Assembly (NCBI GenBank): GCA_002687715.1 | Contig: NZBC01000036.1 | Location: forward strand, 4,322 to 68,321 | Length of the DNA stretch: 64,000 nt | From: Planctomycetota bacterium | Lineage (GTDB): Bacteria; Planctomycetota; GCA-002687715 | Reading direction: 5' to 3' | Part shown: piece after piece, positions 33,615 through 56,806 of the stretch | Layout: each line of letters starts with the position of its first letter | Position numbering within the stretch: position 1 is the first letter of the stretch | Position numbers and translations under genes: made by a program | The notes under the pieces: generated by a model | Database searches by the model: none | The model's input: the letters and a program-made list of their open reading frames with translations, nothing else | Told to the model about the DNA's origin: nothing

Positions 33615-34028
33615 TCAGTCCCGGGCATCGTCTTCGGCCTCCTCGCCCGTGGTCTGCTCCTCACGCTCTCGGATCAGCGACTTCACGCGATCCAGATCGC
33701 CGGGCGCGAGCTCGCGCGCCGAGAGGAGCTGGCAGACCAGCTCGGTCACATCTCCGCGGAACACCCGATCGGCCACGCGGCTGACGACGTCCTGGCGGAC
33801 GTCCTCCTCCGTGACGGTGGGCCGGTACACGAACTGCCGGCCCGTCACGCGGTGGATCAGCAGCCCCCGCTTCTCGAGGCGGGAGAGCAGCGTGGCCACC
33901 GTGGTCACGGCGAGATCTCGCTGGGTCAGCAGGGCTTCATGGATTTCCGACACGGTGCCTTCACCCCGTTGCCAGAGGGCCTGCATGACGCTGAGCTGCA
34001 GATCGCTGAGTAGAGGACCGTCGGTCAT
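33615..34028 (-). CDS. BlaI/MecI/CopY-family transcriptional repressor
   Basis: 137 aa. N-terminal winged-helix (LSVMQALWQRGEGTVSEIHEAL...TVATLLSRLEKRGLL) and C-terminal dimerisation helix with an acidic tail, typical of the penicillinase-repressor family. Confidence 0.85.
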   Translation of the reverse strand: MTDGPLLSDLQLSVMQALWQRGEGTVSEIHEALLTQRDLAVTTVATLLSRLEKRGLLIHRVTGRQFVYRPTVTEEDVRQDVVSRVADRVFRGDVTELVCQLLSARELAPGDLDRVKSLIREREEQTTGEEAEDDARD

Positions 34029-34076
34029 GGTGTTGTGCGAGGTCGCGGATGCGGGGAGGCAGGGTGCATCGACGAC

Positions 34077-34118
34077 AGATGTAATACTACAGATGTAATA
34101 CTACATATGTAATACTAC
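34077..34118. promoter_or_regulatory. tandem BlaI/CopY operator: three 14-bp repeats (AGATGTAATACTAC x2, ATATGTAATACTAC) giving two TACA-N2-TGTA dyads
   Basis: Read directly. This AT-rich island sits in a 68% GC genome, 50 bp upstream of the repressor start and 120 bp upstream of the divergent thioredoxin-like gene. TACAGATGTA (34088-34097) and TACATATGTA (34102-34111) match the canonical CopY/BlaI box TACAnnTGTA. Confidence 0.65.
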
Positions 34119-34239
34119 TCCTGGGACGGATCTTCAACCTCAGATCGCAGGAAGCTGCAAATCGAGGGGCCGCACCATCTTCTGACCTCACCCTGCTCGC
34201 TCGACGGAGACCGCGGCTCAAGAGGATTATCATGCCGGC

Positions 34240-35388
34240 ATGACGTCGCTCATCTGCGTTCTGCTCGCCAGCCTCGGCCCCGGGTTCGACGAGCCGCCCG
34301 TCTCCAGCTCCGAGTTCCGGAGCCTCCACGGCTCCCTGGTTCCGAAGCAGCGCGCCCTGTGGGAGACGATCCCGTGGTCGGTCGACCTCGTCGCCGCGGT
34401 CGATCGAGCGCGCCGCGAGAAGAAACCGCTCTTCATGTGGTCGATGAACGGCCACCCCATGGGCTGCACGTGAAACAACGGGGTGCTGGACCGTGCGTCC
34501 ACGTTCTCCGATCCCGACATCATCGCGATGCTCCAGACCCGTTTCGTCCCGGTCGCGGTCGACGTGTGGTACGAGGAGCGTCGCCAGGATCCGGCTGGGA
34601 AGCTCTACCGCCGGATCGTGAACCAGCGCGACGGCATGCGGCCCGGGCGCACGACGCAGGGGTTCTATCTCTTCACGCCGACGGGGGACTTGCTGCAGGG
34701 CTGGAACAACCGCGACGTCAGAAAGGTCAAGCGCAGGCTCCGCAAGGCCCTCGCGTCGTACACGCCACCCACCAGCGACCCCGTGGGCGCCGGGTCCCTC
34801 GACCGCCGCTTCGAGCGGACGCCGCCCGTCGGTGCGGTCGTCGTGGACGTCTTCTCGCGCATCGTGAAGGCGAGCTGGCCACCGTCGCAGTCCCGATGGG
34901 ACCGCGTACAGCGTGAAGCCACCGGGCGCGACCACCTGTGGCTCCTGCCGGCTGAGATCACCGAGATCGTCGCCGGGCGCTGGCCCGCAACGGTCACCCG
35001 GCGCATCGCGCGCTTCCACGTCATCGACAACACCCGCGGCGAGCCGCCGATGTGGAGATCGAACGAGGTGACAGCCGCCGCCCTGAAGCTCGAGTCGACC
35101 GCCGATGGGTACCGCCTGGTCGGGAAGATCCAGGTCAAGAGCCGGAAGGGCGATCGCGGCTGCGACGCTGCCCTGCTCGGCCGGGTCAGGGTGAAGGAGG
35201 GCCGCCTCACGCGGCTCGACATCGTCGCCCGCGGATCCTATTTCGGTCATGGACGCTACACGGGCGGGGCACCTCCCGGTTCCTTCACGCTCGCGGTCGC
35301 GTTCCGACTCGCCGACCCGAAGGCGACCTCGACCCGGGTCCCGCCCCAGGGCTCGCGCGATCTCAACGGATACCTGAGAGCGCGATGA
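34240..35388 (+). CDS. thioredoxin-fold protein interrupted by an in-frame TGA at the active-site position (candidate selenoprotein, or pseudogene/split gene) with ~200-aa C-terminal domain of unknown function
   Basis: Track ORFs 34240..34473 and 34483..35388 are in the same frame, separated by a single TGA (34471-34473). The joined sequence ...KKPLFMWSMNGHPMGCT-[TGA]-NNGVLDRASTFSDPDIIAMLQTRFVPVAVDVW...YRRIVN...QGFYLFTPTGDLL reads as a contiguous thioredoxin fold (beta1, active-site turn, alpha1, beta3, cis-Pro-like region). A 5-bp hairpin GGACCGTGCGTCC lies 15 nt after the TGA. The stop overlaps the SDR start (ATGA). Confidence 0.45.
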
Positions 35389-36179
35389 CCCGAATGCTCC
35401 CGGACGCGACGTTCGCGAATCGAACCGTCCTCGTGACGGGCGGCGGGACCGGACTCGGCAAAGAGACCGCACACCGGTTCGGTGAGCTCGGCGCGCGAGT
35501 CGTCATCGCGAGCCGCAAGGCCGAGCATCTCGATCCCGCCGCCGAGGAGCTGCGCGGCGCCGGCGTCGACGTCCTCGCCGTACCGACCGACGTGACGCGA
35601 CCCGCCCGCGTGGCCGCCCTGCTCGAAACCGCCGTCGAGCGCTTCGGGCGGATCGACGTCCTCGTGAACAACGCGGCGGGCAACTTCTACTGTCCGACCG
35701 CGGATCTCAGCCCCGCGGGCTGGAAGGTCGTGATCGACATCGCGCTCAACGGAGTCTTCTACTGCAGCCGCGAGATCGGCCGCCACATGATCGAGCAGGG
35801 CGGAGGCCGCATCGTGAACGTCGTCGCGACGTACGCGTGGACGGGCGGCCCCGGCACCGCGCACTCGGCGGCCGCCAAGGCCGGCGTCTTGGCGCTCACG
35901 CGGACGCTCGCGGTCGAATGGGCTCAGCACGACGTCCGCGTCAACGCCGTCAGCCCGGGTCCCTTCCATTCCGACGGGGCGAAAAAACGGCTCTGGCCCG
36001 ATGCGAAGACCGAGGCCGCGATGAAGGCCCAGGTCCCGCTGCAGAGATTCGCCACCCGCCACGAGGTGGCCGATGCCATCACCTGGCTGGCATCACCCTT
36101 CGCCGATTATGTGAATGGCGAGGTGCTCGTGATGGACGGCGGGGCTCATCTCGGGCGGGGGTTGACCGGCGAAGCGTGA
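35385..36179 (+). CDS. SDR-family oxidoreductase
   Basis: 264 aa. TGGGTGLG cofactor motif, NNAAG, catalytic S...Y(xxx)K (YAWTGGPGTAHSAAAKAG), PGPF. Confidence 0.85.
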   Translation: MTRMLPDATFANRTVLVTGGGTGLGKETAHRFGELGARVVIASRKAEHLDPAAEELRGAGVDVLAVPTDVTRPARVAALLETAVERFGRIDVLVNNAAGNFYCPTADLSPAGWKVVIDIALNGVFYCSREIGRHMIEQGGGRIVNVVATYAWTGGPGTAHSAAAKAGVLALTRTLAVEWAQHDVRVNAVSPGPFHSDGAKKRLWPDAKTEAAMKAQVPLQRFATRHEVADAITWLASPFADYVNGEVLVMDGGAHLGRGLTGEA

Positions 36180-37940: not shown

Positions 37941-38411
37941 TCACTTGTCCAGGCGGGTCGGCTGCAGGATCACCTTCTCGAACCAGATGCGTTCCACGCG
38001 CGCCTCCTCCCTGGGGAAGAGCTGCTCTTGCGTCATGGCGAGGAGACGTCGCTTCAGAGCGAGCTTGCCGTGGCGGGTGTCGAGGTCCTGGGCGGAGAAC
38101 TCGGGGAGGCGGGTGTGTATCGCGTCGGTGAGGTGGAGCTTGCGACCCGCGATGTGGCCGGCGGGGTCTTCGAGCTCCTTGCCGGCGCGGTAGCTGAAGA
38201 TGTACTCGAGGACGGGGTAGATCTCGGGGTCCCCGTTGAGGCGGAGCGAGACGGGGCCGATGTGGTTCTCGACCTGCTCTTCTTCGTAGTAGGCGTCGGA
38301 GCCGCGCATGCGCTCGGTGTGCTGCTGGCTCCACCCGGCGGGGCCGGAGGAGAGGGCGGCGATCGCCCCGAGGCCAAGCACCAGGCCCGTGATGATGAGC
38401 GCGAGCTTCAC
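37941..38411 (-). CDS. fliL: flagellar basal-body-associated protein FliL (paralog 1)
   Basis: 156 aa. GTG start overlaps the stop of the upstream fliL paralog. Single N-terminal TM (LALIITGLVLGLGAIAAL), then the FliL periplasmic domain pattern (Y......F..N...). Last gene of the flagellar operon. Confidence 0.65.
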   Translation of the reverse strand: MKLALIITGLVLGLGAIAALSSGPAGWSQQHTERMRGSDAYYEEEQVENHIGPVSLRLNGDPEIYPVLEYIFSYRAGKELEDPAGHIAGRKLHLTDAIHTRLPEFSAQDLDTRHGKLALKRRLLAMTQEQLFPREEARVERIWFEKVILQPTRLDK

Positions 38412-38872
38412 TGGATCTTGAAATCGCGGAAGAGGATGTCCTCGATCATCCCTTTCTGATCGGGGAAGACGACCTTCTGGATCAGCGCGCGCATCTCTTG
38501 CTTGAGGATCTCCTTCTGCTCTTTGGACTCGACGTCCTTCCTCTGCTTGGAGGAGATGAGCATGAGGAAACGGTCTTGGAGCTTCGCCGCCTTGGCGCTG
38601 AAGAGCCCCGGCGCTTCGGCGGGTTCGATCTCGGGCCCAACGCGGTACTCGGCGGTGGCGAGGATCTCGATGAACTCACCGTTCGTGCCGCGGAGGTTGG
38701 TCACGATCTTGGCCAGGTCAAACGCGAGCTCATCGCTCGTGTAGTACCCCTTCGTGCCCCGCTTCGAGGTGTCGATCGGCTCGGGCACCCCGGCCGACCC
38801 GACGATCATGAACGCGACACCGCCGAGCAGGAGAAGACCGCCCCCGCCACTGATGAAAACCTTCTTGTTCAT
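38408..38872 (-). CDS. fliL: flagellar basal-body-associated protein FliL (paralog 2)
   Basis: 154 aa. N-terminal TM (LLLLGGVAFMIVGSAGV), YYTSDELAFDL...NLRGTNGEFIEI FliL-like core. GGGGGAGGGG Shine-Dalgarno upstream. Confidence 0.65.
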   Translation of the reverse strand: MNKKVFISGGGGLLLLGGVAFMIVGSAGVPEPIDTSKRGTKGYYTSDELAFDLAKIVTNLRGTNGEFIEILATAEYRVGPEIEPAEAPGLFSAKAAKLQDRFLMLISSKQRKDVESKEQKEILKQEMRALIQKVVFPDQKGMIEDILFRDFKIQ

Positions 38873-38908
38873 CTACAACCCCTCCCCCGGCAATCAGGGT
38901 GCCCTGGG

Positions 38909-39619
38909 TCACGGCCCCACAGTGCTGATCAGTGCGATGCGGCGTCCCCACGAATCCTGACGCCACGAGGTCTCGCCCCCCCCGGTGGGGCCGTATCCGA
39001 TGGGAATGAACCTCTCGATGGGTATATCGCCCGCGGATGAGAGGTATCTGATGACATTGTCGGCACGTTGCATGGCCAGATGCCACGCTGCTTCCGTACC
39101 GAGACCTTCCTTCCACGCGAAACCTTCCACGCGGATTCGGATATCGGAATACCCCGTGAGCCAGGGGGCCATCGTGTCGAGGACCGCCCGGTGCGCGGTG
39201 GTCAGCGTCGAGGACCCCGGTGAGAACACGAGCGGCGCACCGATCTCGTTGGTCCCGGGTTTCTCCAGCGTGTCCATGACCACCTCACGCAGCGCGTCGC
39301 GATTGGCGTCCGTGATGCGGCCCGATTCGTCGACGAGCAGCTTGGAATTGATGCTCTTCGCCGGGCGGAACAGAACACGATCGGCGCCGAGGTCCATCGG
39401 CTTCTGATCGCTCTTCAAGACGCCTGGGAGGCCGTGCGACATGAGCGCCTCGCGGAACGACGACACGCCGTCGCTGATGAAGCCGGCGCGACGTTCGTCC
39501 GCGAACGCCTCGAGCAGGATGAAGAAGCAGAGCAGGTTCGTCATCATGTCCGAGAAGGACAGCATGTATAGAGGTGCGCCCGGTTCGTCCGCTTCTTCGA
39601 CCTTCTTCTTTTCGCTCAC
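38909..39619 (-). CDS. motB: flagellar motor stator protein MotB (paralog 2, OmpA-like C-terminal domain)
   Basis: 236 aa. TM helix with conserved Asp (LYMLSFSDMMTNLLCFFILL). C-terminal OmpA/MotB peptidoglycan-binding region. Confidence 0.75.
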   Translation of the reverse strand: MSEKKKVEEADEPGAPLYMLSFSDMMTNLLCFFILLEAFADERRAGFISDGVSSFREALMSHGLPGVLKSDQKPMDLGADRVLFRPAKSINSKLLVDESGRITDANRDALREVVMDTLEKPGTNEIGAPLVFSPGSSTLTTAHRAVLDTMAPWLTGYSDIRIRVEGFAWKEGLGTEAAWHLAMQRADNVIRYLSSAGDIPIERFIPIGYGPTGGGETSWRQDSWGRRIALISTVGP

Positions 39620-40362
39620 AGGTGCCCCTTCCCGTCGGGGTCCCAGATGACCTGGATCTCGATACGACGGTTCTTGCGGCGGCCGATCTCCGTTTCGTTA
39701 TCCGCGATCGGCACGGCCGCGCCGAGACCCGCGGCGCCGATGCGCCACGGTTCCCACGCCGTCTCCCTACCCAAGAACTTCGCCATCTCGAAAGCGCTCT
39801 TGCGCGTAAGGGTCAGTGCGTCTTGCCCGGGGACGAGGTCCGAGGTCTTGCTGTCAGTGTGAGCCTCGATGACGATGCGGACCGGCTCGTCCTTGAAGAA
39901 CCGCGCCACCTCGAGCAGCACGTCACGACCCGTCGACTTCAGCCGGGTCCCTCCGGGCAGGAAGAAGTGGCGCCCGTCCATGCGAATGCGATAGCCGTCC
40001 GGCATCTTCGAGAAGTCGACCTTCCGGTCGAAGACCGACGGATCCTGGATCGCCGTCGACATCCTCTCCTCGAGTTCCTGCCGCTTGGGGTGGCTCTCGG
40101 CGCCCTTCAAGTCGGTCTTCACGTTGCTCGGGACGTTGAGCTTGAACGGGGACTGTTTGCTCTTCTTCTGCTTCGGCGTCATCACGCCGAGCGAGCCCGT
40201 CAGGGCGCCGGTCACGCGGCGGAGCTTGTCGACGTCCACCGCAGAAAACGCGAACAGGAGAATGAAGAACGTCACCAGCAGAGAGATGAGGTCACCGAAC
40301 GTGACCACCCACATCGGGGCGAGGAGCTCCTTGTCTGCCGGGGCTGATTTTCGATTCGCCAT
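39616..40362 (-). CDS. motB: flagellar motor stator protein MotB (paralog 1)
   Basis: 248 aa. MWVVTFGDLISLLVTFFILLF TM with the proton-channel Asp. OmpA-like C-terminus (RIVIEAHTDS...NRRIEIQV). Confidence 0.8.
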   Translation of the reverse strand: MANRKSAPADKELLAPMWVVTFGDLISLLVTFFILLFAFSAVDVDKLRRVTGALTGSLGVMTPKQKKSKQSPFKLNVPSNVKTDLKGAESHPKRQELEERMSTAIQDPSVFDRKVDFSKMPDGYRIRMDGRHFFLPGGTRLKSTGRDVLLEVARFFKDEPVRIVIEAHTDSKTSDLVPGQDALTLTRKSAFEMAKFLGRETAWEPWRIGAAGLGAAVPIADNETEIGRRKNRRIEIQVIWDPDGKGHL

Positions 40363-40388
40363 CGTCCTGCGGTCGGGTCACCCCGTCC

Positions 40389-41162
40389 CTACTTCTTCGC
40401 GTCTTCGAGCTCGGCGCGCTCATTGGGAGAGATGTAGCTCTTCAGCTTCTCCTTGATCATCTGCGGCTTGTCCCCCGCCTGGATCGAGGCGATCCCCTCG
40501 ATCATGATCTCCCGCATGAGTGTCTCTTCCTTTTGACGCGCCTCCAGCTTCACCGCGAGCGGGATGAAGATCATGTTCGCCATGACCGCGCCGTAGAACG
40601 TCGTGATGAGCGCGACCGCCATACCACCACCAATCTGGCTCGGGTCGTCGAGGTTCTTGAGCATGGCGATGAGACCCATGAGGGTCCCGATCATGCCGAA
40701 CGACGGGGCCATCGTGCCCATCTGGTCCACGATCTTCTTGCCACTCAGGTGGCGGCCCTGCATGCCGAACAACTCGATGCCCATGATGTCCCGCACGGTC
40801 TGGGCAGGGAATCCGTCGACCACGAGACGCACGCCCTTGATGAGGAACGGGTCCTCGAGCTCCTTGATCTTCTCCTCGAGGGCGAGCAGGCCTTCGCGGC
40901 GTGCGACGTACGCGAAGTCCGCCATGCGCTCGATCTCTGCCTGCGGCGTGGGCAGCGGGTAGAGCACGGTCTTCTTGATGACCTTCATGACCCCGAGGAC
41001 CTTGCCCAGCGGGAAGGCCATCAGGGTGGCGGCGAGGGTTCCGCCCATCACGATGGCCATGCTTGGCACGTCGATGAACGACCCGACCCCCGCGCCACTG
41101 GACATGGACCAGATGACGAGGCCGAAGCCCAGCACGATGCCGATTAGGGTTGCGACGTCCAT
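40389..41162 (-). CDS. motA: flagellar motor stator protein MotA
   Basis: 257 aa. Four TM segments and the conserved MotA/TolQ/ExbB C-terminal region (GTLMGLIAMLKNL...ALITTFYGAVMANMIFIP). Confidence 0.85.
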   Translation of the reverse strand: MDVATLIGIVLGFGLVIWSMSSGAGVGSFIDVPSMAIVMGGTLAATLMAFPLGKVLGVMKVIKKTVLYPLPTPQAEIERMADFAYVARREGLLALEEKIKELEDPFLIKGVRLVVDGFPAQTVRDIMGIELFGMQGRHLSGKKIVDQMGTMAPSFGMIGTLMGLIAMLKNLDDPSQIGGGMAVALITTFYGAVMANMIFIPLAVKLEARQKEETLMREIMIEGIASIQAGDKPQMIKEKLKSYISPNERAELEDAKK

Positions 41163-41210
41163 TCCCGGAATCTCCCTCTATGGGGATCTTCGGATCAACG
41201 GGGCCTCGCT

Positions 41211-42002
41211 TTAGAGCCCCGCCGTCGTGTTCTTCTCGGCGGTGATCGCCTGCATGCGCTTCGTCACCTGGACGGCCTGGTTGGGGTCCAATTCCTGCAG
41301 GATCTTGGCGGAATTCCGCTCGGACATCCCTTTGAGGATCTTCGCGACCGAGTCCACGTCCGGGGGAACCAGCTGCGCGGCCGGGTTCGCCGCGTCCGGG
41401 CTCTGCGCGTCCGGCTTCTCCCCCTCGATCATCCTCTTGAAGATGATGGCGGCCTTCTGCGGCGACATCTTCTCGAACGTCGCCCGGAGGATCTTCAAGT
41501 TCTTCTCCTCGCTCCGGAGGACGAGGACCTGCTGCTGATCGAGCTCTTCCCGACGGGCCTCGAGGGAGTACGCCTCTTTCTCGAGCTTCGCGCCGACGGT
41601 CTTCAAGTCCTCACGCCAGTTCTCGAGCTCGCGCCGCTCCGAATCCACCGCGTCCTTCTTCTTCTGCATGTCGAGGCGCTCCTGCTCGACCGCCGTTCGC
41701 CCGTCGGCCAGCTCGTGAGCCAGGGCCTCGAGCTCCTTGGCGGTCATGCCCGTGGGCAGGTCCCAAAGCTCCAAACTCTCGCGCAGCAACAGCTTCGACT
41801 TGAGATCCGCCGCATCGGCCTTGGAGAGCTCTTCCTCGCCCTCGGGTGGGAAGAAGAACCCGCCGACGACCGGCATCGCGTGCAGCGACTCCATCGTCTC
41901 GGCCGAGTTCTTGCCTTGGACGCGGATCAACACGTGAACGAGGCCGACGAAGATCAGCTGGGCCATGAACACGACCCCGAATACGCAAAACACCTTCTTC
42001 AT
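41211..42002 (-). CDS. YlxF/MotE-like flagellar protein with MgtE_N-type C-terminal domain
   Basis: 263 aa. N-terminal TM, long charged coiled-coil, C-terminal SVAKILKGMSERNSAKILQELDPNQAVQVTKRM resembling the MgtE_N domain found in B. subtilis YlxF and MotE. Position between fliJ and motA matches ylxF in fla operons. Confidence 0.45.
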   Translation of the reverse strand: MKKVFCVFGVVFMAQLIFVGLVHVLIRVQGKNSAETMESLHAMPVVGGFFFPPEGEEELSKADAADLKSKLLLRESLELWDLPTGMTAKELEALAHELADGRTAVEQERLDMQKKKDAVDSERRELENWREDLKTVGAKLEKEAYSLEARREELDQQQVLVLRSEEKNLKILRATFEKMSPQKAAIIFKRMIEGEKPDAQSPDAANPAAQLVPPDVDSVAKILKGMSERNSAKILQELDPNQAVQVTKRMQAITAEKNTTAGL

Positions 42003-42445
42003 GATTCCCTCCGATGAAGCACGGCCGCAACCTCGTCCATGAGGCGTTCTTCCTCGCGGCGTTCTTCCTCTCCGTGTTCTTCACGCGCCCGGTCTTCGAG
42101 GTGATCGAGCGCCTTGCGATCAGCCTGGCGTATGCGGGCCTCTTCACGCGCTACTTCGAATGCGTTCCTGGCCGTGGCGATCATCGTGATCGCCCGTTCG
42201 TCCGCGTCGTCCAACTGAGCGATCTCGTCGTGGTGCAGACCGATGAACGACAGATCGATCCGCCCGGTCGCGAGATGTCGCTCGAGGTCGTCGACCACGG
42301 CCTGCCTCTGGGTCCGGATGGCCTCGAGGTGCGCTTCGGCCTCGCGAAGCCCCTGCAGAGCTCGCGCCAGCGCGAGCAGCGCCTCCTTCTCCGCCGCGGC
42401 GCGGAGCTTCTGGACCTTAGCGAGCCGGAACTGGAACCGCCTCAT
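41999..42445 (-). CDS. fliJ: flagellar export protein FliJ
   Basis: 148-aa all-helical coiled-coil protein immediately after fliI, with ATGA overlap. Size and position are typical of FliJ. Confidence 0.65.
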   Translation of the reverse strand: MRRFQFRLAKVQKLRAAAEKEALLALARALQGLREAEAHLEAIRTQRQAVVDDLERHLATGRIDLSFIGLHHDEIAQLDDADERAITMIATARNAFEVAREEARIRQADRKALDHLEDRAREEHGEEERREEERLMDEVAAVLHRRES

Positions 42446-43764
42446 GACGCGGCCTTCCCGGCGACGTTGCCGAGTAGCGCGAGCGTCTCGGCCATGGTCC
42501 GCCCCTGGCCCGTGCGTTGAGCGAGAAGGGCCTCGAACTCCGTCTGCACAGCCAGCGCGCGATCGACCTTCGGGTCCGACCCTGGCTTGTATGCGCCGAC
42601 GGAAACGAGATCCCGGGCCTCCTCGTAGGCCGCCATCAGACTACGGACCTCGATCGCCGCCTCGCGGTGGACCTCCGAGGTGACGCGATCCATGATGCGA
42701 GACGTGCTCCGCAGAACGTCTACCGCGGGGAATCGTCCGCGCTGGGCAACGTCGCGAGAGAGCACGATGTGCCCGTCGAGCAGGCCCCGCATGGTGTCCG
42801 CGACGGGGTCGTTCATATCGTCGCCATCGACGAGCACGGTGAAGATACCGGTGATGCTCCCGGTCGGGGTGCGTCCCAGACGCTCGACTAGTTTCGGCAT
42901 CGATGAGAAGAACGATGGCGGGTAGCCCTTCACCGTCGGTGGCTCGCCGAGGGCGAGCCCGACCTCACGCGTGGCGCCGGCGAGTCGAGTGACCGAGTCC
43001 AGCATCATCATCACGTCGTGGCCCTGGTCACGAAACGACTCCGCGATGGCGGTCGCAGTGAGGCAGGCCTTGATACGGATGAGGGGAGGCGCGTCAGAGG
43101 TCGCGACCACAATGACGCTCTTCTTCAGCCCCTCTTCGCAGAGCGCCTCCTCGATGAAGTGACGGACCTCGCGGCCGCGCTCACCGATGAGCGCGATGAC
43201 GTTGACGTCCGCGAGTGTCGACCGGGCGACGTCTGCGAGCAACGTCGACTTGCCGACACCCGAACCCGAGAAGATGCCCATGCGCTGGCCGCGCCCGAGG
43301 GTGAGAAAGGCATCGATGACGGATACGCCGCTCGGCAGCGGCTCCTCGATCGGAACCCGCTCCATCGGCGTGGGCGCGGCGCGTTGCAGCGGGAACGTGC
43401 GGCCCGGCGGGATGGGAGGTCCGCCGTCGATTGCTCGCCCGAGTCCATCGACCACGCGTCCGAGCAGCGCGTCGCCGCCGCGAACCTCGAGGCGCGTACC
43501 CCGCGGAACCACGCTCGCCCCGGGGTGGAGGCCGTCCGCCTCCCCCAGCGGCATGACCAGCGTCGCGCCGCCCCGAAACCCCACGACCTCGACGTCCAGC
43601 TCGCTGCCATTGTCGAGTTCGACTCGGCAGAGGTCGCCCATCGCAGCCTGCAAGCCACGGCACTCGACGAGCAGTCCGACGACCTGGGTCAGGACGCCCG
43701 CGTGACGACCCATGGGCACGGCGCGGACGATGTGTTCCATGCGCGCTACGTCAGGCAGGACCAT
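42442..43764 (-). CDS. fliI: flagellum-specific ATP synthase FliI
   Basis: Start re-assigned to MVLPDVARMEH (ATG 43764-43762). Walker A GSGVGKST, Walker B VMMMLDSVTR, and full F1/T3SS-ATPase similarity. Confidence 0.9.
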   Translation of the reverse strand: MVLPDVARMEHIVRAVPMGRHAGVLTQVVGLLVECRGLQAAMGDLCRVELDNGSELDVEVVGFRGGATLVMPLGEADGLHPGASVVPRGTRLEVRGGDALLGRVVDGLGRAIDGGPPIPPGRTFPLQRAAPTPMERVPIEEPLPSGVSVIDAFLTLGRGQRMGIFSGSGVGKSTLLADVARSTLADVNVIALIGERGREVRHFIEEALCEEGLKKSVIVVATSDAPPLIRIKACLTATAIAESFRDQGHDVMMMLDSVTRLAGATREVGLALGEPPTVKGYPPSFFSSMPKLVERLGRTPTGSITGIFTVLVDGDDMNDPVADTMRGLLDGHIVLSRDVAQRGRFPAVDVLRSTSRIMDRVTSEVHREAAIEVRSLMAAYEEARDLVSVGAYKPGSDPKVDRALAVQTEFEALLAQRTGQGRTMAETLALLGNVAGKAAS

Positions 43765-44440
43765 GTTCTGCCTCCGAGAGCAGGCGCTCGCGCATCTGCT
43801 CGAGCCGCTCCGAGATGCCCGAGTACATCTCGGCGTCGCCGCCGGTAACCCGGAACGCACCCCTTGCGAACGTCGGGTCCGGCTTCAACGTGAGACCATC
43901 CTCGGTGAGGCTCTGAGGCAAGACCCCGAGGTCTTCAGGGTGTCCCGAGAGGGTCACGGGCTCGCCCGCGAGCTCGGGCAGGACGCTGTCGAGCACGCGC
44001 TTCACGAGTCCGCGGACGTCGTGCTGTTCCGCATCGACAACGCTCGCCGTCAGCTCTTCCGCGATGGTACACGCCAGACGCACCACGAATTCCGTGAGCT
44101 CCGAACGATCGTTCACCCGGGCCTGCGCGAGCCGATTCGCGGCGGAGCACATGGTGGCGGACGCGGCATCGACGGTCGCGGAGACCTCCGCCAACGCGTG
44201 CTCGCGGCCTCGCTCGAACGCCTTGCGCTGCACCGCCTTCAGATCAAGCGCCGGCAGGGCACGGTTCGCCGCCGGAGGTTTGGGTGCGCCGACGGGGTTG
44301 GCCTCCGGGGTATCCTCAGCATCCGCATCGGGAGCCCCGCCCTCGGGGGTCCGCGGTGTCGGAACGGAGGCCGCCCCGGGTTCGTCACGGCGGCGGACCG
44401 CGACCAGGCCGCGGGGCACGACGACCTGCCTACGCGACAT
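43751..44440 (-). CDS. fliH: flagellar assembly protein FliH
   Basis: 229 aa. Pro/Ala-rich N-terminus, central helical region, C-terminal FliH/ATP-synthase-b-like domain. Lies between fliG and fliI and overlaps both. Confidence 0.6.
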   Translation of the reverse strand: MSRRQVVVPRGLVAVRRRDEPGAASVPTPRTPEGGAPDADAEDTPEANPVGAPKPPAANRALPALDLKAVQRKAFERGREHALAEVSATVDAASATMCSAANRLAQARVNDRSELTEFVVRLACTIAEELTASVVDAEQHDVRGLVKRVLDSVLPELAGEPVTLSGHPEDLGVLPQSLTEDGLTLKPDPTFARGAFRVTGGDAEMYSGISERLEQMRERLLSEAEHGPA

Positions 44441-45458
44441 ACGCGCCGCCCTTGCCCTTGGAGACGGAGATCTCTCCCGAGTCCATCAGCTCGCGCACGA
44501 TGAGCAGGATCTGCTTCTGTGAGTCGAGCACCTCGCTCAGCGGCACCGCGCCGAGGAACTCACGTTCCTCGAGGATCATGTCACGCGTACGCTGCGACGT
44601 GGCCTGCAGGATCGAGTTCTGCACCTCCTCGTCGCACGCCTTGAGCGATAGCGCCAGTAGCTTGGTATCGATCCCCGCGAGGATCTTCTGCATGGTGCGC
44701 TTGTCGAGCAGCGAGAGGTCCGCCCAGGTGAACATCCGCTCGCGGATCTCCGTGCTGAGGGTCTCGTCGTCTTCCTCGACGCGCTTGAGGATCTCCTTGT
44801 CCACGCCGGGCTCGGTCGCGTTGAGAATGTCGGCGACCACACGGAAACGCGTGTCCGTCTCGTCCTCGGCGTCTTCCTCCTCGCGGCGCAATCCGCGCGT
44901 GCGTTCGATCATCGTCTGGGCAACTTGCTTCAGCATGCGCGCCGACGGCTCCTCCATGGTCGCCATGCGGGTCACGATGGCGGACCGCGCCTCCTCCGGG
45001 ATCTCCTCGAGGATGCTGGCAGCCTGCTCCGAATCCAGGTTCGCGAGCACGAGCGCCTGCAGCTGCGGGTGTTCGTCGCAGAGGACGCGCGCGAGATCCT
45101 GGGCGCGGATTCCTCGGAGGGCGCGGAACGGATACTGGCTCCGCGAGGCATCGCGGATCGTACTCAGACGCTCCTTGCCCTCCTCCGGCCCGTACAGGTT
45201 CTCCATCATTCCGGTCAGGGTCTTGCCCAGGTTCGACCGGAACACGACGCCGGACTGGAGCATCTCACGGAACTCGTCGATCACCCCGTTGATGACGCTC
45301 TCGTCGATGTCCGTTTCCTCGAGTTCGACCATCGCCTGACCGATACGGCCCTGCTCGTCGGTATCGAACTCCGCCATGACGGAGGACGCCGCCTCATCAC
45401 CGACGACGGCGAGCAGGACCGCGACCTTCTGGATTCCCTTGAGCTGGACGGGCGACAT
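44430..45458 (-). CDS. fliG: flagellar motor switch protein FliG
   Basis: 342 aa. Conserved FliG middle and C-terminal domains (...ILEEIPEE...IVTRM... / LSLKACDEEVQNSILQ), with the charged torque helix. Confidence 0.9.
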   Translation of the reverse strand: MSPVQLKGIQKVAVLLAVVGDEAASSVMAEFDTDEQGRIGQAMVELEETDIDESVINGVIDEFREMLQSGVVFRSNLGKTLTGMMENLYGPEEGKERLSTIRDASRSQYPFRALRGIRAQDLARVLCDEHPQLQALVLANLDSEQAASILEEIPEEARSAIVTRMATMEEPSARMLKQVAQTMIERTRGLRREEEDAEDETDTRFRVVADILNATEPGVDKEILKRVEEDDETLSTEIRERMFTWADLSLLDKRTMQKILAGIDTKLLALSLKACDEEVQNSILQATSQRTRDMILEEREFLGAVPLSEVLDSQKQILLIVRELMDSGEISVSKGKGGAYVA

Positions 45459-46951
45459 CAGCTGCTACTACCCGCGGGTTCGTACATCCAGTTGCGAAGG
45501 AGCTTGCCGACGGTCCCCACGTCCCGGTGGACCAGCTCCTTGAGCTCGTCCTTGGGGTCGGGGCGGACCTCGAGTTGCCGCCGCTCATCCGTTTCTTCCT
45601 CGGCGATGCGCGCGAGCGCGGAGCCGACGGTCTTCTTGGCCCGGCGGGCGGTCAGAGCGAGGTAGGCGACGAACGCCAGCCCGATCACCCCCGTGATCGA
45701 CCACTTGATGAGCTCCCAGGCGAATCCGGTCTCCCACATCGTCGGTTCGACGGGCGCGGCGGCGGCGATGGGCGCCGCGAAAGGCACGAACTGCACGCCT
45801 CCGAACGTGTCGCCCCGCGCGGAGCGATAACCGACGGCGCCCTTCACGATGCTCTCGATCGCCAGGGTGTGCACTTTCAGCGACTCGTCCGCCAGGACGC
45901 TGACCGCCAGGTTCTTGACCGCCCCGACTTCCTTGATGCGGACCTCCCTTTTCTTGCCGTGCGCATAGGTGATGTCCGTGTCTTCGGTCTTGGACCCGAC
46001 CTCCGAGCCCGCAGCCGTGCCGGCCTGCACTGCGCTCGTGCTCACCGTGCCCTTCCCCAGCGGTTTGGAGTTCTCGGTCGCACGGATCTTCTCCGTCTGG
46101 ACGACCTGCGAATCGGGGAGGAAACCATCGGTCTCGACCCGTACCTGCTCCATGTCGAGTTCCACGTTGCAGCGCACCACGACCTTGTCGCGGCCGAACA
46201 CACGCTCGAGTGCTTCCTCCGCGGCGCCCTGGAGGCGCATGCTGCGGGCCTGGGCAAGGCCGGCGGCGACGGCCACTGGACGGTCGGCGCCTTCCGGGCG
46301 GGCCAGGACCAGACCGCGCGTGTCCGTGACGACGACGCTCTCGGCATCGAGCTCCTTCACCGCGCCGGCGACGAAGCGGACGATCGACTCGACCTGGTGG
46401 GCCGAGATCAGGTGCCCGGGCGTCGGGTCGAGCATGACGGACGCCTTGGCGCCTTGGCTGCCCTCCTTGGTCCAGTGATGCTTGGCGGGCGTGATGTAGA
46501 CCGTTGCGTCCTCGATTCCCTCCTGACGCATGATCGCCATCTCGAGCTCGTCCTGGAGCGCGATCAGACGCTTGAACTCCTGCTGCGACTTGGTCGCCGT
46601 GATATCGAGTCCGAACGCCTTCGCGAACCCTTTGTCGGAGTCGTGCTGGAGCAGATCGTTCTGCACGACGATGGTCTGGACCTCGTTCCAACGATCGAAC
46701 GGGACCTCGATGGTCGAGCCGCCCTCGACGATCCGGTACGGCACGTCGGCATCGTCCAGTTTCGCGAGGACCTTCTGGGCCTCCTTGCGACTGAGCCCGC
46801 TCCCGAGCGTGCGCCACTGCGTGGAGCTGCCCGTGAAGATCGCAACGCAGGAGAACAGCACGATGAGCACGGCCGTCCCGAGGACCAACCCACGCTGGAC
46901 CCTGCTGAGCCGCTGCCAGACCTGCTTCACTTGTGTAACGAACGCGTTCAT
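45458..46951 (-). CDS. fliF: flagellar M-ring protein FliF
   Basis: 497 aa. N-terminal TM (LVLGTAVLIVLFSCVAIF), YscJ/FliF secretin-ring domain, and a second TM near the C-terminus (GVIGLAFVAYLAL). Confidence 0.9.
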   Translation of the reverse strand: MNAFVTQVKQVWQRLSRVQRGLVLGTAVLIVLFSCVAIFTGSSTQWRTLGSGLSRKEAQKVLAKLDDADVPYRIVEGGSTIEVPFDRWNEVQTIVVQNDLLQHDSDKGFAKAFGLDITATKSQQEFKRLIALQDELEMAIMRQEGIEDATVYITPAKHHWTKEGSQGAKASVMLDPTPGHLISAHQVESIVRFVAGAVKELDAESVVVTDTRGLVLARPEGADRPVAVAAGLAQARSMRLQGAAEEALERVFGRDKVVVRCNVELDMEQVRVETDGFLPDSQVVQTEKIRATENSKPLGKGTVSTSAVQAGTAAGSEVGSKTEDTDITYAHGKKREVRIKEVGAVKNLAVSVLADESLKVHTLAIESIVKGAVGYRSARGDTFGGVQFVPFAAPIAAAAPVEPTMWETGFAWELIKWSITGVIGLAFVAYLALTARRAKKTVGSALARIAEEETDERRQLEVRPDPKDELKELVHRDVGTVGKLLRNWMYEPAGSSS

Positions 46952-46964
46952 GCCTCAACCTCGA

Positions 46965-47273
46965 TCAGACCTGAATCCGCATCACTTCCTGGTACGCATC
47001 GACGAGCTTGTTCCGGACTTCGAGCATCATCCGGAAGCTCACATCCGCCCGGTTCATCGCGATCATCACGTCATGCACATCGTCGATCTTGCCGGAGGCG
47101 AAATCGTCGAGCTTCTGGTGCGAAGCCTTGTGCATCTCGTCCGCTTGCTCGAGGAGACCCTCGAGCACCTTGCTGAAGCCCTCGCCGTCGCCCGACTTGT
47201 CCTGCTCTTGTGGCTGCAGCCGCGCCATGTCTTCCGCGATGCGCATCGCGTTCACGTCAATGGGCATGCTCAT
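46965..47273 (-). CDS. fliE: flagellar hook-basal body complex protein FliE
   Basis: 102 aa. C-terminal FliE signature (DVHDVMIAMNRADVSFRMMLEVRNKLVDAYQEVMRIQV). Confidence 0.8.
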   Translation of the reverse strand: MSMPIDVNAMRIAEDMARLQPQEQDKSGDGEGFSKVLEGLLEQADEMHKASHQKLDDFASGKIDDVHDVMIAMNRADVSFRMMLEVRNKLVDAYQEVMRIQV

Positions 47274-47276
47274 GGG

Positions 47277-47690
47277 TTACCTCGCGAGTTCCAGAGCCTG
47301 CTCGGCCATGCGGACCGACATCTGGGCTGCCTGCAGATTCGCCTCGTACGCCCGCGCCGCCGTCATGAGGTCCACCATCTCGAATGTCGGGTTGATGTTC
47401 GGCATCTTCACCATGCCACTGCTGTCAGCGTGGCGATGCCCGGGCTGGTACTTCTCGAGATGCGGCGTCTTGGTGTCGTCGACGATCTCGGCGACCCGCA
47501 CTCCCCCGCGCATCTCACCGTCGAGGACGGTCTCGAATACGGCGAGCTGACGTTTGTAGGGCGTGCCGTCGCCGCGGTTCGTATCGTGAGCGTGCGCGAG
47601 ATTCGTCGCGATCAGGCCCATGCGAACCCGCTCGGCAAGCAAGCCGCTGGCGCTGATCGACAGTCCGCGAAGTACGTTGTTGAGGTCCAT
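47277..47690 (-). CDS. flgC: flagellar basal-body rod protein FlgC
   Basis: 137 aa. N-terminal rod motif (ISASGLLAERVRMGLIATNLAHAHD) and C-terminal VDLMTAARAYEANLQAAQ. Confidence 0.85.
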   Translation of the reverse strand: MDLNNVLRGLSISASGLLAERVRMGLIATNLAHAHDTNRGDGTPYKRQLAVFETVLDGEMRGGVRVAEIVDDTKTPHLEKYQPGHRHADSSGMVKMPNINPTFEMVDLMTAARAYEANLQAAQMSVRMAEQALELAR

Positions 47691-47735
47691 CTCTCTCTCA
47701 ATCTGAGGCCGTGGTGAGCCTCGAGCTGACCATGA

Positions 47736-48055: not shown

Positions 48056-48059
<4 letters not shown>
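47736..48059 (-). CDS. flgB: flagellar basal-body rod protein FlgB
   Basis: Start re-assigned to MSPLGPQSSKILAALDFTSEQHRVIQRNLANLNTPGFKAK (ATG 48059-48057, ATGA overlap with the response-regulator stop). 107 aa. Confidence 0.8.
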
Positions 48060-49422
<1,363 letters not shown>

Positions 49423-49426
<4 letters not shown>

Positions 49427-50700
49427 GACGTTACTCCAGGCGAACGGATCGGTAGCACGACCGTCAACCGCGCGCCTCCAATCGGGGCGGTCTCAGCGAT
49501 GATGGAGCCGCCATGGAGCTCGACGAACTTGCGGGAGAGCGCGAGTCCCAGTCCGGTGCCTTCGGCCTTCGTGGTCGTGAACGGCCGGAAGAGGCGCCCG
49601 CGCAGGTCGGTCGGGATGCCCGGTCCATCATCGTCCACGGTGATGCGAAGACGGTTGCCCTCGCGACGTGCGCCGATCATCACTCGCCCGTCTTCTCCGG
49701 TCGCCTCCATGCCGTTGCGGACGAGGTTCCCCAGCGCCAGCTTCAGCTTGAGACGATCGCACTCGATCTCGGTCCCGCTGGTGTGGTCAACCACCTCCAC
49801 CGCGGCCCGCGGCATTCCCGTCGGCTCCTCGGCGGCGGCCGCGACCTCACCGAGCAGGGCGCTCACAGTCACGGGGTCCATCCGCGCGCGCTCGGGCCGT
49901 GCCCACAGCAGCAGGTTGGAGATGATCCCGTTGACCTCCGCCACACCCTTGCGAATGCGGTCGGCGTAGCGCAGCAGTTGTGACTTCGAGGCGGCCTCGA
50001 TGCCCTCGAGACTCTCCCCCTCACCCCGCAGGGCCTTGGCGAGCAGCCCCGCGAATCCCTCGACCCCGTTCATCGGGTTGCGAATCTCGTGCGCAACGCC
50101 CGCGGCCATCTCTCCGAGCTCGGCCAGCGTGTCGAGACGCGTGACCTGTGAGCGCAGATGCGCGACCTCGGTCTGATCCGACAGGATCTCGAGGCGTCCG
50201 CCATCAGGGAGGTCCGCGACGGACCCAGACAGAAAGCGCTCTGATCCGTCCAGGCAACAGACGAGCCGTTCCACGACGGTTCCCGACCGGACCTCGCTCC
50301 TCCCAAGCAGCAGGATCGAGGTACCGCGATGATCGAGCAGCGTGCGCGCGTCACGACCGCTGACCTCGTGCGACGGACGTCCGATGATCCGCTCGGCTGC
50401 AGGGTTCAGCCGCGTGATCGTGCCCTCTCCGTCACACGCCACGACCCCGCAGGGGATCGCGTCGAGGATGCCGTTCAGCTCCCCCGTGACGCTCTTGAGC
50501 TCTGAGACCTTGTTCAGCAGCCGTCCGTTGGCCGCGGACAAGCGACCATCCACGCCGGCGGCGCGGTCCTCGAGCCGCGAGTACGCGCGCTCGAGACTGC
50601 GGGTCACCTGGTTGAACACCCGGAAGCTCTCTTGGAGATTCGTCGCTTCGTTCACCGGCATTGTCGGGCCGACCTCTCGTTCTGGTGCCACGCCGTTCAT
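49423..50700 (-). CDS. PAS-domain sensor histidine kinase (FleS/FlgS-like)
   Basis: Start at ATG 50700-50698 (MNGVAPE), ATGA overlap with the upstream TPR gene. Alternative start MPVNE at 50661. PAS (ILDAIPCGVVACDGEGTI), HisKA H-box (AAGVAHEIRNPMN) and HATPase_c (GTGLGLALSRKFVELHGG). Confidence 0.85.
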
Positions 50701-51530
50701 GTGGTTCCCTTTCCCCCCGCGAGCAGCTTGCGGATGCGTTCTCTCTGCTTGCCGAGGTCGAGGCTCCACTTCGCCTGGTTGCCCCAGTGCCCCTGCGGGT
50801 CGTCGCCCTGGGTCGCGACGTAGAGTTCCTCGGCTTCCTTCCACCGCCCGAGCTTGTCGTGGCAGCGAGCCATGCGGAACGTGATTTCGGCTGTGCGCTC
50901 CTTCGCCAACACCCGCTGGAACGCCTTGAGCGCGCCCGCGTAGTCCTCGGCGAAATACAGCGCCTTCGCGAGCGCGACCTTGTCAACGGCATCAGCGATG
51001 CGTTCTTCAGACCCGACCCCCGACTTCGGCGGCTCGGGGACTTCGAGTGCCACGTCGAGCGCGGCGGCGCCGAAACGGGTCGGACGGCGCACCTTCGCGA
51101 TCTCTCCCCGAGAACGCTCGTTGGCGAGGCGAGTCCGACGCGCCCGGAGAAGGCGCTCCTTGGCCTGCAGCTCCGCGACCTGGGTTTCCTCCTGCTTCAA
51201 GGACGACTCGGAGGCGCCAGCGTCGAGCCGCTGTTTCAAGACCTCGGGCATGTCGACGATGATGCCGCGCTCCAGCGCCGACTGCAGATTCTCGAGGTGA
51301 CGGATCTCCTCTTCGGTCTCGGCAAGACGCGCCTCCATCACCTTGACCTTCGACTTGTCCGCGGACTTCAGCATGACGCCGATGTCCCCGAAGATCTCCT
51401 GCAACGTCGGAGGCGATTCCTGGTTGCCCCCCAACTCGTCCAGGATGTTCCAGATGGCGCCTCCGGGTCGCTGGGCAGGCGCGGTCGCCGCCAGGATTCC
51501 CGTCAGCATCATCATTGCCGCACGTCTCAT
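50697..51530 (-). CDS. secreted coiled-coil/TPR-like protein (candidate flagellar accessory protein)
   Basis: Start re-assigned to MRRAAMMMLTGILAATAPAQ (signal peptide, GGAGGAAG Shine-Dalgarno). 277 aa with a long coiled coil and a C-terminal TPR-like region. Embedded in the flagellar operon. Confidence 0.5.
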   Translation of the reverse strand: MRRAAMMMLTGILAATAPAQRPGGAIWNILDELGGNQESPPTLQEIFGDIGVMLKSADKSKVKVMEARLAETEEEIRHLENLQSALERGIIVDMPEVLKQRLDAGASESSLKQEETQVAELQAKERLLRARRTRLANERSRGEIAKVRRPTRFGAAALDVALEVPEPPKSGVGSEERIADAVDKVALAKALYFAEDYAGALKAFQRVLAKERTAEITFRMARCHDKLGRWKEAEELYVATQGDDPQGHWGNQAKWSLDLGKQRERIRKLLAGGKGTT

Positions 51531-54034: not shown

Positions 54035-55441
<1,407 letters not shown>

Positions 55442-55456
55442 GGAGACTTCCCGGAT

Positions 55457-55472
55457 TGGCACGACAGTGGCA
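55457..55472 (+). promoter_or_regulatory. candidate sigma54 promoter (TGGCAC-N5-TGGCA) upstream of fliC
   Basis: TGGCACgacagTgGCA has correct GG/GC spacing with one mismatch at -14. It lies ~290 nt upstream of the fliC ATG on the coding strand. No sigma28-like element was seen near fliC. Confidence 0.3.
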
Positions 55473-55759
55473 CGGGCCACGCTGTGCGATCTCTCTTCTC
55501 GAACTGGACGGTTCGGCGTCACGATGATGCCACCCCACGTATCGTCAAATCCGACAGCTGACTGAAAACAAATCACTCGTGCACCTTTGTCCCCTGTGGG
55601 CCGCCGCAACTTGGGACGTGGGCGCCTGTTTCCTCAGCACCCGGTGCATTTCGCCACCTTGATCTCAAGTTCGGCCCCAGTCGACCTACAAGACCTGTGA
55701 CGAGCGGCGAACCGTGGACGACGCACCGCGACCCTCGCAGGACGCTCCGGGAGGAACTC

Positions 55760-56590
55760 ATGGGACTCAGGGTAAACACCAACGTCTCCTCGCTGACTGC
55801 TCAGCGAAGCCTTGCACGGGCTACGGAAAACTTGAACCGCAACTTCCGCCACCTCAGCACCGGACTCCGGGTGGCCACGGCCGCCGACGACGCCGCCGGA
55901 CTCGCCATCTCGGAACGACTCCGGGCCAGGATCCGCTCGCTGGATCAGGCCGCTCGGAACGCCCAGGACGGCATCAGTCTCGTCCAGACGGCAGAGGGCG
56001 CACTCGAGCAGGTCAACTCGAACCTCATTCGGATGCGGGAGCTCTCGATCCAGGCGAGCAACGGCACGGTTTCGAACGCCGATCGGGATACTCTGGATGA
56101 GGAATTCCAGGCGCTGATCAACGAGGTCGGACGGATCTCCGGCCAGACGAACTTCAACACGATCCAGTTGCTCGACGGCTCGACGCCAACTCTGACGCTC
56201 CAAGTGGGCGCAGACACGTCGGTGGGTGTCGACACCCTGGCCGTGACACTCGTCGCCGTCACGACATCTGCTTTGACGCTCAGCACGTTGGGCATCGGCT
56301 CCGCCGGTAGCCCGTCACAGGCGATCGCCAACATCGACGCCGCCATCGACGCGGTGAGCACCGCTCGCGGTGGCCTGGGTGCCGTGCAGAACCGTCTCGA
56401 CGGCGTCATCTCAAACCTGCAAGTCTCTTCGGAGAACCTCGCAGCTGCGCAGTCCCGCATCCGGGACGTCGACGTGGCGTCGGAAAGTGCGATGCTCACG
56501 AAGAACACCATCCTCCAGCAGGCTGCGATCTCCGTACTCGCCCAGGCGAACGTACAACCGCAAGCCACGCTGTCCCTGCTGCAGGGTTAG
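55760..56590 (+). CDS. fliC: flagellin
   Basis: Start MGLRVNTNVSSLTAQR (GGGAGGAA Shine-Dalgarno). Conserved flagellin N-terminus and C-terminus (ILQQAAISVLAQANVQPQATLSLLQG). Short variable region (276 aa). Confidence 0.9.
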   Translation: MGLRVNTNVSSLTAQRSLARATENLNRNFRHLSTGLRVATAADDAAGLAISERLRARIRSLDQAARNAQDGISLVQTAEGALEQVNSNLIRMRELSIQASNGTVSNADRDTLDEEFQALINEVGRISGQTNFNTIQLLDGSTPTLTLQVGADTSVGVDTLAVTLVAVTTSALTLSTLGIGSAGSPSQAIANIDAAIDAVSTARGGLGAVQNRLDGVISNLQVSSENLAAAQSRIRDVDVASESAMLTKNTILQQAAISVLAQANVQPQATLSLLQG

Positions 56591-56608
56591 GAACGCGCTA
56601 CGACGTGA

Positions 56609-56636
56609 GACGGCCGCCACTCGGGTGACGGCCGTC
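56609..56636 (+). terminator. GC hairpin after fliC (GACGGCCG-N12-CGGCCGTC)
   Basis: 8-bp stem 19 nt after the fliC stop. No U-tract. Confidence 0.4.
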
Positions 56637-56684
56637 CATTCACACCGAGTCAGGCGGGTTTTGAAGGGAAGGGGGAGAGTCACG

Positions 56685-56783
56685 ATGAACGCAAGCAACT
56701 CAATCTCGCCCGTCTTCGACAAAGTCGCCTCTCGAGGTGGTGTGTGCATCCAGCCCTCGTCGATAGTCCAGGAGGCTGCCTGA
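56685..56783 (+). CDS. 32-aa micro-ORF with very strong RBS between fliC and fliD (possible FlaG-like remnant / small flagellar protein)
   Basis: AAGGGGGAGAG Shine-Dalgarno 6 nt before ATG 56685. Encodes MNASNSISPVFDKVASRGGVCIQPSSIVQEAA. It ends 23 nt before the fliD start. Confidence 0.3.
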   Translation: MNASNSISPVFDKVASRGGVCIQPSSIVQEAA

Positions 56784-56806
56784 GTACAGGCAACGGAGAA
56801 CGCCCC

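Follow-up and report, generated by a model that had tools for sequence, protein, structure and literature searches.

The segment 34240..35388 of the window (the whole 64-kb stretch of DNA that was analysed) appears in the present annotation as the hypothetical ORFs CMJ83_02780 and CMJ83_02785, and comparison with its relatives indicates that it is very probably one genuine selenoprotein gene. Nearly as firmly, we favour the fuller explanation that this one gene encodes an exported, two-domain selenoprotein of ~380 residues that uses Sec for redox chemistry. The initial annotation had proposed a candidate selenoprotein here, a reading now strongly supported by a conserved TGA, Cys-bearing relatives, a covarying hairpin and the position of the residue in the fold. 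The features of the locus are as follows.

34240..35388, + strand: probable selenoprotein gene, complete; 382 codons, with Sec at codon 78, then a terminal TGA
34240..34281, + strand: predicted N-terminal signal peptide (MTSLICVLLASLG...), judged from the leaders of homologs; cleavage point approximate
34366..34734, + strand: thioredoxin-fold domain, ~residues 43-165, broken by the TGA
34465..34467, + strand: Cys76 codon (TGC), two residues before Sec; candidate resolving Cys of C-x-U
34471..34473, + strand: UGA codon, predicted to be read as Sec78
34479..34510, + strand: extended SECIS stem-loop, predicted; MFE -15.9 kcal/mol over 34471-34515
34487..34501, + strand: SECIS core hairpin; stem 34487-34491 with 34497-34501, loop CGUGC at 34492-34496
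34783..35385, + strand: C-terminal β-rich domain, ~200 residues, with no match to a known fold
35385..36179, + strand: short-chain dehydrogenase (SDR) gene, its ATG overlapping the selenoprotein stop; lineage-specific

The in-frame UGA and its counterparts in relatives

Two ORFs in one frame, parted by the TGA at 34471 alone, had been described initially, and that layout is borne out. ORF 34240..34473 (77 aa) and ORF 34483..35388 (301 aa) share a frame in which the TGA at 34471-34473 is the sole stop between them, and the joined reading of 382 codons runs ...KKPLFMWSMNGHPMGCT-[TGA]-NNGVLDRASTF.... A composition screen of the whole 64-kb window showed codon-position GC of the coding type on either side of this in-frame TGA and of no other. 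The remaining in-frame TGAs sit in antisense-type frames, and the screen brought up no further selenoprotein genes in the window.

The break recurs throughout the family. A protein search with the joined sequence gave 746 homologs; among the matches listed (120 of 746), nearly all are ~300 aa long and begin directly past the TGA position, and gene callers therefore cut the family at this one place throughout. With each species represented by one genome, a scan yielded 409 related stretches, from which 80 loci were taken, 79 of them testable in that their upstream region was present. They represent several orders of Planctomycetota, the Verrucomicrobiota and a single Omnitrophota MAG. Going upstream in frame from the match, one first meets a TGA stop at the identical codon in 79/79 testable loci, which with the window makes 80/80, well beyond what chance would give. 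The protein is conserved on both sides of this UGA, as expected of a bacterial selenoprotein: the flanks read GHPLGC[T/V] before it and NNGVLDR[A/E]S after it, with zero indels in the 80 loci. At their ends these genes use all three stops (TGA 36, TAG 28, TAA 14), so the exclusive use of TGA at the internal site is not a stop-codon preference. The Cys at -2 is present in 77/80 loci and, being missing in three, may be non-essential.

Two members come from MAG contigs labelled ‘uncultured Alcaligenaceae bacterium’ (L027 and L052); they are typical of the planctomycete type, with ~43% identity to the window protein, and the label is probably a binning or taxonomy error. In another relative (P0035, 593 aa) the C-terminal ORF is longer by ~290 residues, a fusion variant of the family.

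Whether homologs bear Cys or Sec at this position had been posed as a check, and full-length relatives such as P0127 do carry Cys. The profile search that brought them up combined the N-terminal and C-terminal ORFs with one full-length relative and covered 1.84 billion cluster representatives, giving 1758 matches at E <= 0.001. Among the best 150 of these 1758, ~100 begin just past the Sec site and ~22 span it. G-C-T-C replaces G-C-T-U in P0127, P0137, P0139, P0223 and P0164, and P0247 has T-T-C, so that Cys aligns with the UGA in six relatives. This is classical Sec/Cys pairing. The Cys forms are more distant relatives (~37% identity); none occurs among the 80 closest species. A word-index search across the TGA site gave six matches, all of them truncated forms, and the Cys forms surfaced through the exhaustive profile search. 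Other site-spanning relatives have lost the motif (S-V-E, A-A-G, C-T-G, C-V-A and others). A sense codon other than Cys at the site would have spoken against Sec, and such codons occur only in these divergent paralogs without the whole redox motif (S-V-E in P0085, for example), which are ordinary and leave the selenoprotein reading standing.

The downstream hairpin, proposed Sec decoding and other readings of the UGA

A short stem-loop, GGACCGTGCGTCC, had been noted 15 nt after the TGA; it is present at 34488-34500, and it is conserved and covaries. When the 80 sequences were aligned with the TGA at columns 7-9 (alignment A2) and folded with RNAalifold, a single helix resulted, pairing columns 23-27 with 33-37 around a CGUGN loop. 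The 5-bp hairpin begins 13 nt past the UGA, and the MFE fold of the window sequence has 12 pairs. Covariation is clearest at pair 24-36, which is C-G in 57 sequences, G-C in 17 and U-A in 6, with zero mispairs, at columns that are synonymous third positions of Leu (CUN) and Ser (UCN) codons; pair 27-33 shows one double change, in L076. The register is specific: 89% of cells pair, and shifting the 3' arm by 1-3 columns lowers this to 25-42%. Homologs mostly keep the lower stem (34479-34483 with 34506-34510) paired, with weak covariation. Only five pairs are conserved, and the single-sequence folding z-score of the region, -1.4, is unremarkable.

Within the gene, synonymous variation is also least in the codons of the hairpin. 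Entropy at the third codon position drops to 0.17 at Asn79, 0.10 at Asp84, 0.17 at Arg85 and 0.0 at Ala86; in the rest of the gene, conserved A, G, P, T, V, L, S and R residues average 1.62 (sd 0.21). Arg85 is the most constrained four- or six-codon site of all, encoded by CGU in 78 sequences and CGG in 2, and never by AGR. In the published model of bacterial SECIS elements the loop starts 16-37 nt past the UGA (PMC13188914). Here it starts 18 nt past the UGA and is 5 nt long with G at loop position 2, and together with the MFE of -15.9 kcal/mol these values agree with all four criteria of that model (PMC13188914). In one locus, L020 (887-946), a GAC to CAC change (Asp to His) breaks a stem pair with a C-C mismatch at an otherwise invariant position, and may be a sequencing error or the mark of a decaying copy.

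In the proposed mechanism, SelB and Sec-tRNA(Sec) would decode the UGA at 34471 as selenocysteine, recruited by this small hairpin 13 nt downstream. Searches of the 64-kb window (tRNA and Rfam searches, and inspection of large ORFs) found no selA, selB, selD or tRNA-Sec, nor indeed any tRNA or Rfam family, and the proteins encoded by the ten window ORFs with sizes like SelA, SelB or SelD are unrelated to them. Two related planctomycete MAG loci do have a tRNA-Sec gene ~250-300 nt past the downstream end of the family gene, at 10446-10541 of L014 (Rfam RF01852; 66.8 bits, gathering score 47) and at 4057-4155 of L028. The tRNA-Sec of L014 is flanked by genes for galactokinase, gamma-glutamyltransferase and ScpB; no sel genes stand beside it, the three large ORFs there being the galactokinase, the gamma-glutamyltransferase and an unassigned protein. 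A tblastn search of 1.16 Mb of loci with E. coli SelD gave zero matches. Complete sets of selA, selB, selC and selD are documented in planctomycetes (PMC4807772).

If the UGA were instead read through or reassigned to Trp, Gly or Cys, the gene would be expressed without Sec, an explanation that we consider very improbable. Such reassignment is known in some bacteria, including some Verrucomicrobiota (PMC13462651), and would sit easily with a window in which no Sec machinery is seen. However, TGA ends 31 of the 44 genes in the window, the selenoprotein gene itself included, so UGA is not reassigned genome-wide. The UGA site also aligns with Cys in relatives, a conserved, covarying hairpin lies at SECIS distance, tRNA-Sec genes adjoin the family gene in two loci, and planctomycetes with the full Sec machinery are on record (PMC4807772).

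Even less probable is a genuinely split gene, in which a 77-aa peptide and a separately initiated 301-aa protein would assemble after translation. Gene callers do predict two ORFs, with a GTG 9 nt past the TGA, but the putative start codon varies (GTC, GTT, ATA or CTG in many loci) and there is no space for a ribosome-binding site. The 9-nt spacer, moreover, is always in frame and always encodes N-N-G, full-length Cys homologs exist, and the break would fall in the active-site loop of the fold.

A thioredoxin-like gene killed by a nonsense mutation is among the least probable accounts. An in-frame stop does divide a single fold, and no Sec machinery is seen in the 64-kb window, but a pseudogene is hard to square with the same TGA codon in 80/80 loci, with flanks conserved at the protein level, zero frameshifts and coding-type GC3 on both sides. 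A nonsense mutation need not be TGA, and the terminal stops use all three codons; the conserved downstream RNA hairpin likewise contradicts independent recent TGA mutations. Equally remote is a sequencing or assembly error at 34471, which a single base change from a true TGC or TGT codon in a metagenome-assembled genome could have produced, but the split into 77 aa and 301 aa is identical in four independent assemblies of the window’s own organism (three from ENA assembly records, the fourth made by Logan from a sequencing run) and the codon is the same in 79 other species. Pseudogene, sequencing error and split gene had been named from the start as the alternatives to a selenoprotein, and the 80/80 conservation and the four assemblies dispose of them.

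Fold, proposed chemistry and genomic setting

The selenoprotein would carry its Sec where thioredoxin-fold enzymes place their attacking residue. A full-length Cys homolog, P0127 (37% identical to the window protein), was modelled with AF2 (pLDDT 92.4, pTM 0.91), and the C-terminal domain of the window protein was modelled separately. The P0127 model has the β-α-β and β-β-α core of the thioredoxin superfamily, and its redox residue stands at the N-terminal end of helix α1: G-H-P-L-G-C62-T-C64 comes after strand β1 (49-55), and N65 is the first residue of α1. The Sec-equivalent C64 thus sits at the α1 N-cap, the position of the attacking Cys in CxxC proteins. Both the continuous thioredoxin fold across the TGA and the placing of the TGA at the redox-active position, as first proposed, hold in this model. 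The CxxC-like motif did not survive: the redox centre is C-x-U, and in place of a canonical CxxC, UxxC or CxxU the protein has G-C-T-U-N-N-G, where Cys occupies -2 and Gly +3. RDHLW and RFH.DNTRGEPP.W are invariant motifs of the C-terminal domain, which has no match among solved structures, and the protein has no sequence relative in the PDB.

The N-termini of homologs carry hydrophobic leaders with Ala-rich ends before a conserved L(T/S)E.EF..LH start, and from these signal-peptide-like N-termini we infer that the protein, expected to be ~40 kDa as a precursor and smaller once its signal peptide is removed, is exported to the periplasm. Related modules are found in signalling proteins. The thioredoxin-like and β-domain module follows the Pkinase domain in Ser/Thr kinases P0157, P0164 and P0189 and the zf-HC2/FecR part of the anti-sigma-like proteins P0218, P0221, P0236, P0241 and P0246; its place behind kinase or anti-sigma parts fits an extracytoplasmic location. 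The redox motif is usually gone from these modules. Kinase P0164 retains C-T-C and is a possible redox-sensing kinase.

The most likely chemistry would be a selenol-based redox cycle. Sec78 would attack an oxidised substrate, for example a disulfide or a peroxide-like oxidant, Cys76 would resolve the intermediate by forming a selenenylsulfide, and the enzyme would be recycled by an external reductant of the periplasm. The C-terminal β-rich domain would pack on the thioredoxin domain and probably form a site for the substrate or a partner. The proposals for substrate and redox partner are guesses. A more speculative idea, which we hold to be rather unlikely, is that this is a selenoenzyme nearly intolerant of Cys, whose C-x-U and β-rich domains perform a periplasmic chemistry to which sulfur is poorly suited, and whose module was recruited in Sec-less form as a sensor of the kinase or FecR type. 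Its basis is the presence of Sec in all 80 closest species and the ~100 of the best 150 representatives that are cut at the site, compared with six that have Cys. If it were true, the Sec chemistry might concern a particular oxidant, metal or metalloid, and the Sec-less two-domain module would serve Ser/Thr kinases and anti-sigma factors of the FecR type as their extracytoplasmic sensor.

All-against-all clustering of the neighbours in the 80 loci, together with four Pfam-annotated contexts, revealed no conserved partner gene. The overlap with the SDR gene at the 3' end had been taken as a sign of co-transcription; the ATGA itself is present at 35385-35388, and the conserved operon is not, the arrangement being restricted to the window’s lineage in the neighbour comparison of the 80 loci. 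A PQQ-type GSDH gene lies two genes downstream in the window and directly downstream of the family gene in L085, whose family protein is 48% identical; it is the only neighbour found in common between the window and one relative in this comparison. The window also holds a flagellar cluster (~38400-47700 on the minus strand, 48056-50844 and 54035-58168) with two FliL, two MotB, MotA, FliJ, a FliI-type ATPase, FliH, FliG and, further on, FliD, accompanied by a PAS histidine kinase and two response regulators of the sigma-54 type. Such a cluster is ordinary, but L085 has the same flagellar block beside its family gene.

Upstream of the gene, a mini-ORF (ATG CCG GCA TGA, M-P-A-stop) occupies 34233-34244, its stop overlapping the start codon of the selenoprotein gene (ATGA at 34240), and an SD-like AGAGGA at 34219-34224 has a spacing that suits the mini-ORF better than the main ATG. 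The overlap could reflect translational coupling or chance. No promoter-like or terminator-like sites were found in 33950-35500. Farther upstream, three tandem 14-bp repeats (ACAGATGTAATACT x3, 34074-34116) form an AT-rich island in a window of 67% GC. They contain two exact TACAnnTGTA palindromes (34088 and 34102; chance expectation 0.03) and a third with one mismatch (34074), a sequence that we take to be the operator box of the BlaI/MecI/CopY type. The repeats sit between the selenoprotein gene and a divergent gene for a Penicillinase_R (BlaI-like) repressor (33615-34028, minus strand), a location that suggests local repressor control of the BlaI-like gene, the selenoprotein gene or both.

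Comparison with known selenoproteins and thioredoxin-fold families

The source names of the homologs are all ‘hypothetical protein’, and no Pfam or NCBIfam model reaches its cut-off on the window protein. The best Pfam match is PF03190, Thioredox_DsbH (DUF255), at 16.6 bits and E = 0.008 against a gathering threshold of 27; in NCBIfam, NF041383 (VPGUxxT type 2) scores 13.3 bits against a cut-off of 275, and its motif is absent. The 2026 inventory of prokaryotic selenoproteins (PMC13188914, Table 1) lists 119 families, among which there is no obvious match by model, architecture or motif; the scan by model, with Pfam and NCBIfam, covers nearly all of them, a few families having CDD or PANTHER identifiers alone. 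Term searches of the GOS survey, deep-Sep and BSepDB papers likewise brought up no family with such an architecture or motif. The discovery pipelines in that literature lean largely on Sec/Cys pairs, and the omission from catalogues may be because close Cys orthologs are scarce here. Planctomycete P1 has a ‘hypothetical’ selenoprotein candidate (IMG 2643311185/6; PMC4807772, Table S9) that could be a family member. Apparently missing from the catalogues, the family is widespread in Planctomycetota and Verrucomicrobiota, carried as two ‘hypothetical’ ORFs in hundreds of their genomes and in more than 1000 protein clusters. Complete chromosomes with the gene include OZ245838.1 and OZ245740.1. 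Recognising it mends these annotations and enlarges the bacterial selenoproteome, and the family could mark selenium use in abundant marine and freshwater lineages. The compact, highly conserved hairpin is a clean test case for a minimal bacterial SECIS in phyla where the signal is little studied.

Among relatives by fold, the exported domains of the Thioredoxin_7, DsbD-gamma, DsbH (DUF255) and AGR types differ from the window protein in several respects. The window protein lacks CxxC or CxxS, has a C-x-U centre with Gly at +3, scores below the cut-off of every one of these families and adds an unrelated β-rich C-terminal domain of 200 residues. NF041383 (‘hypothetical protein OS_HP5’), a profile of ~290 positions, is likewise a thioredoxin-like selenoprotein and the sole selenoprotein model with any signal, its weak match covering the Sec region (residues 44-107). 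Its motif is V-P-G-U-x-x-T, whereas the window protein has G-C-T-U-N-N-G and is not a member.

The thioredoxin-like selenoprotein family defined by PF13192 (Thioredoxin_3), a small single-domain family, has the C-x-U spacing in common with the window protein, which in contrast has no PF13192 match, is ~380 residues long and has two domains and a predicted signal peptide. The GPx-like selenoproteins (UxxT) also resemble it in their thioredoxin fold, single Sec at a helix N-cap and absence of Cys at +3. An invariant Gln of the window protein (in a TTQG loop), located where the cis-Pro loop of thioredoxin sits, may recall the catalytic Gln of GPx. The window protein has a different motif and no PF00255 match, and no GPx catalytic tetrad was identified in it. 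The family is of a kind already known, the thioredoxin-fold selenoproteins, and is unusual in its C-x-U centre, near-obligate Sec, minimal SECIS and second domain without an assigned fold. The C-x-U centre and the C-terminal domain together point to a chemistry not described so far.
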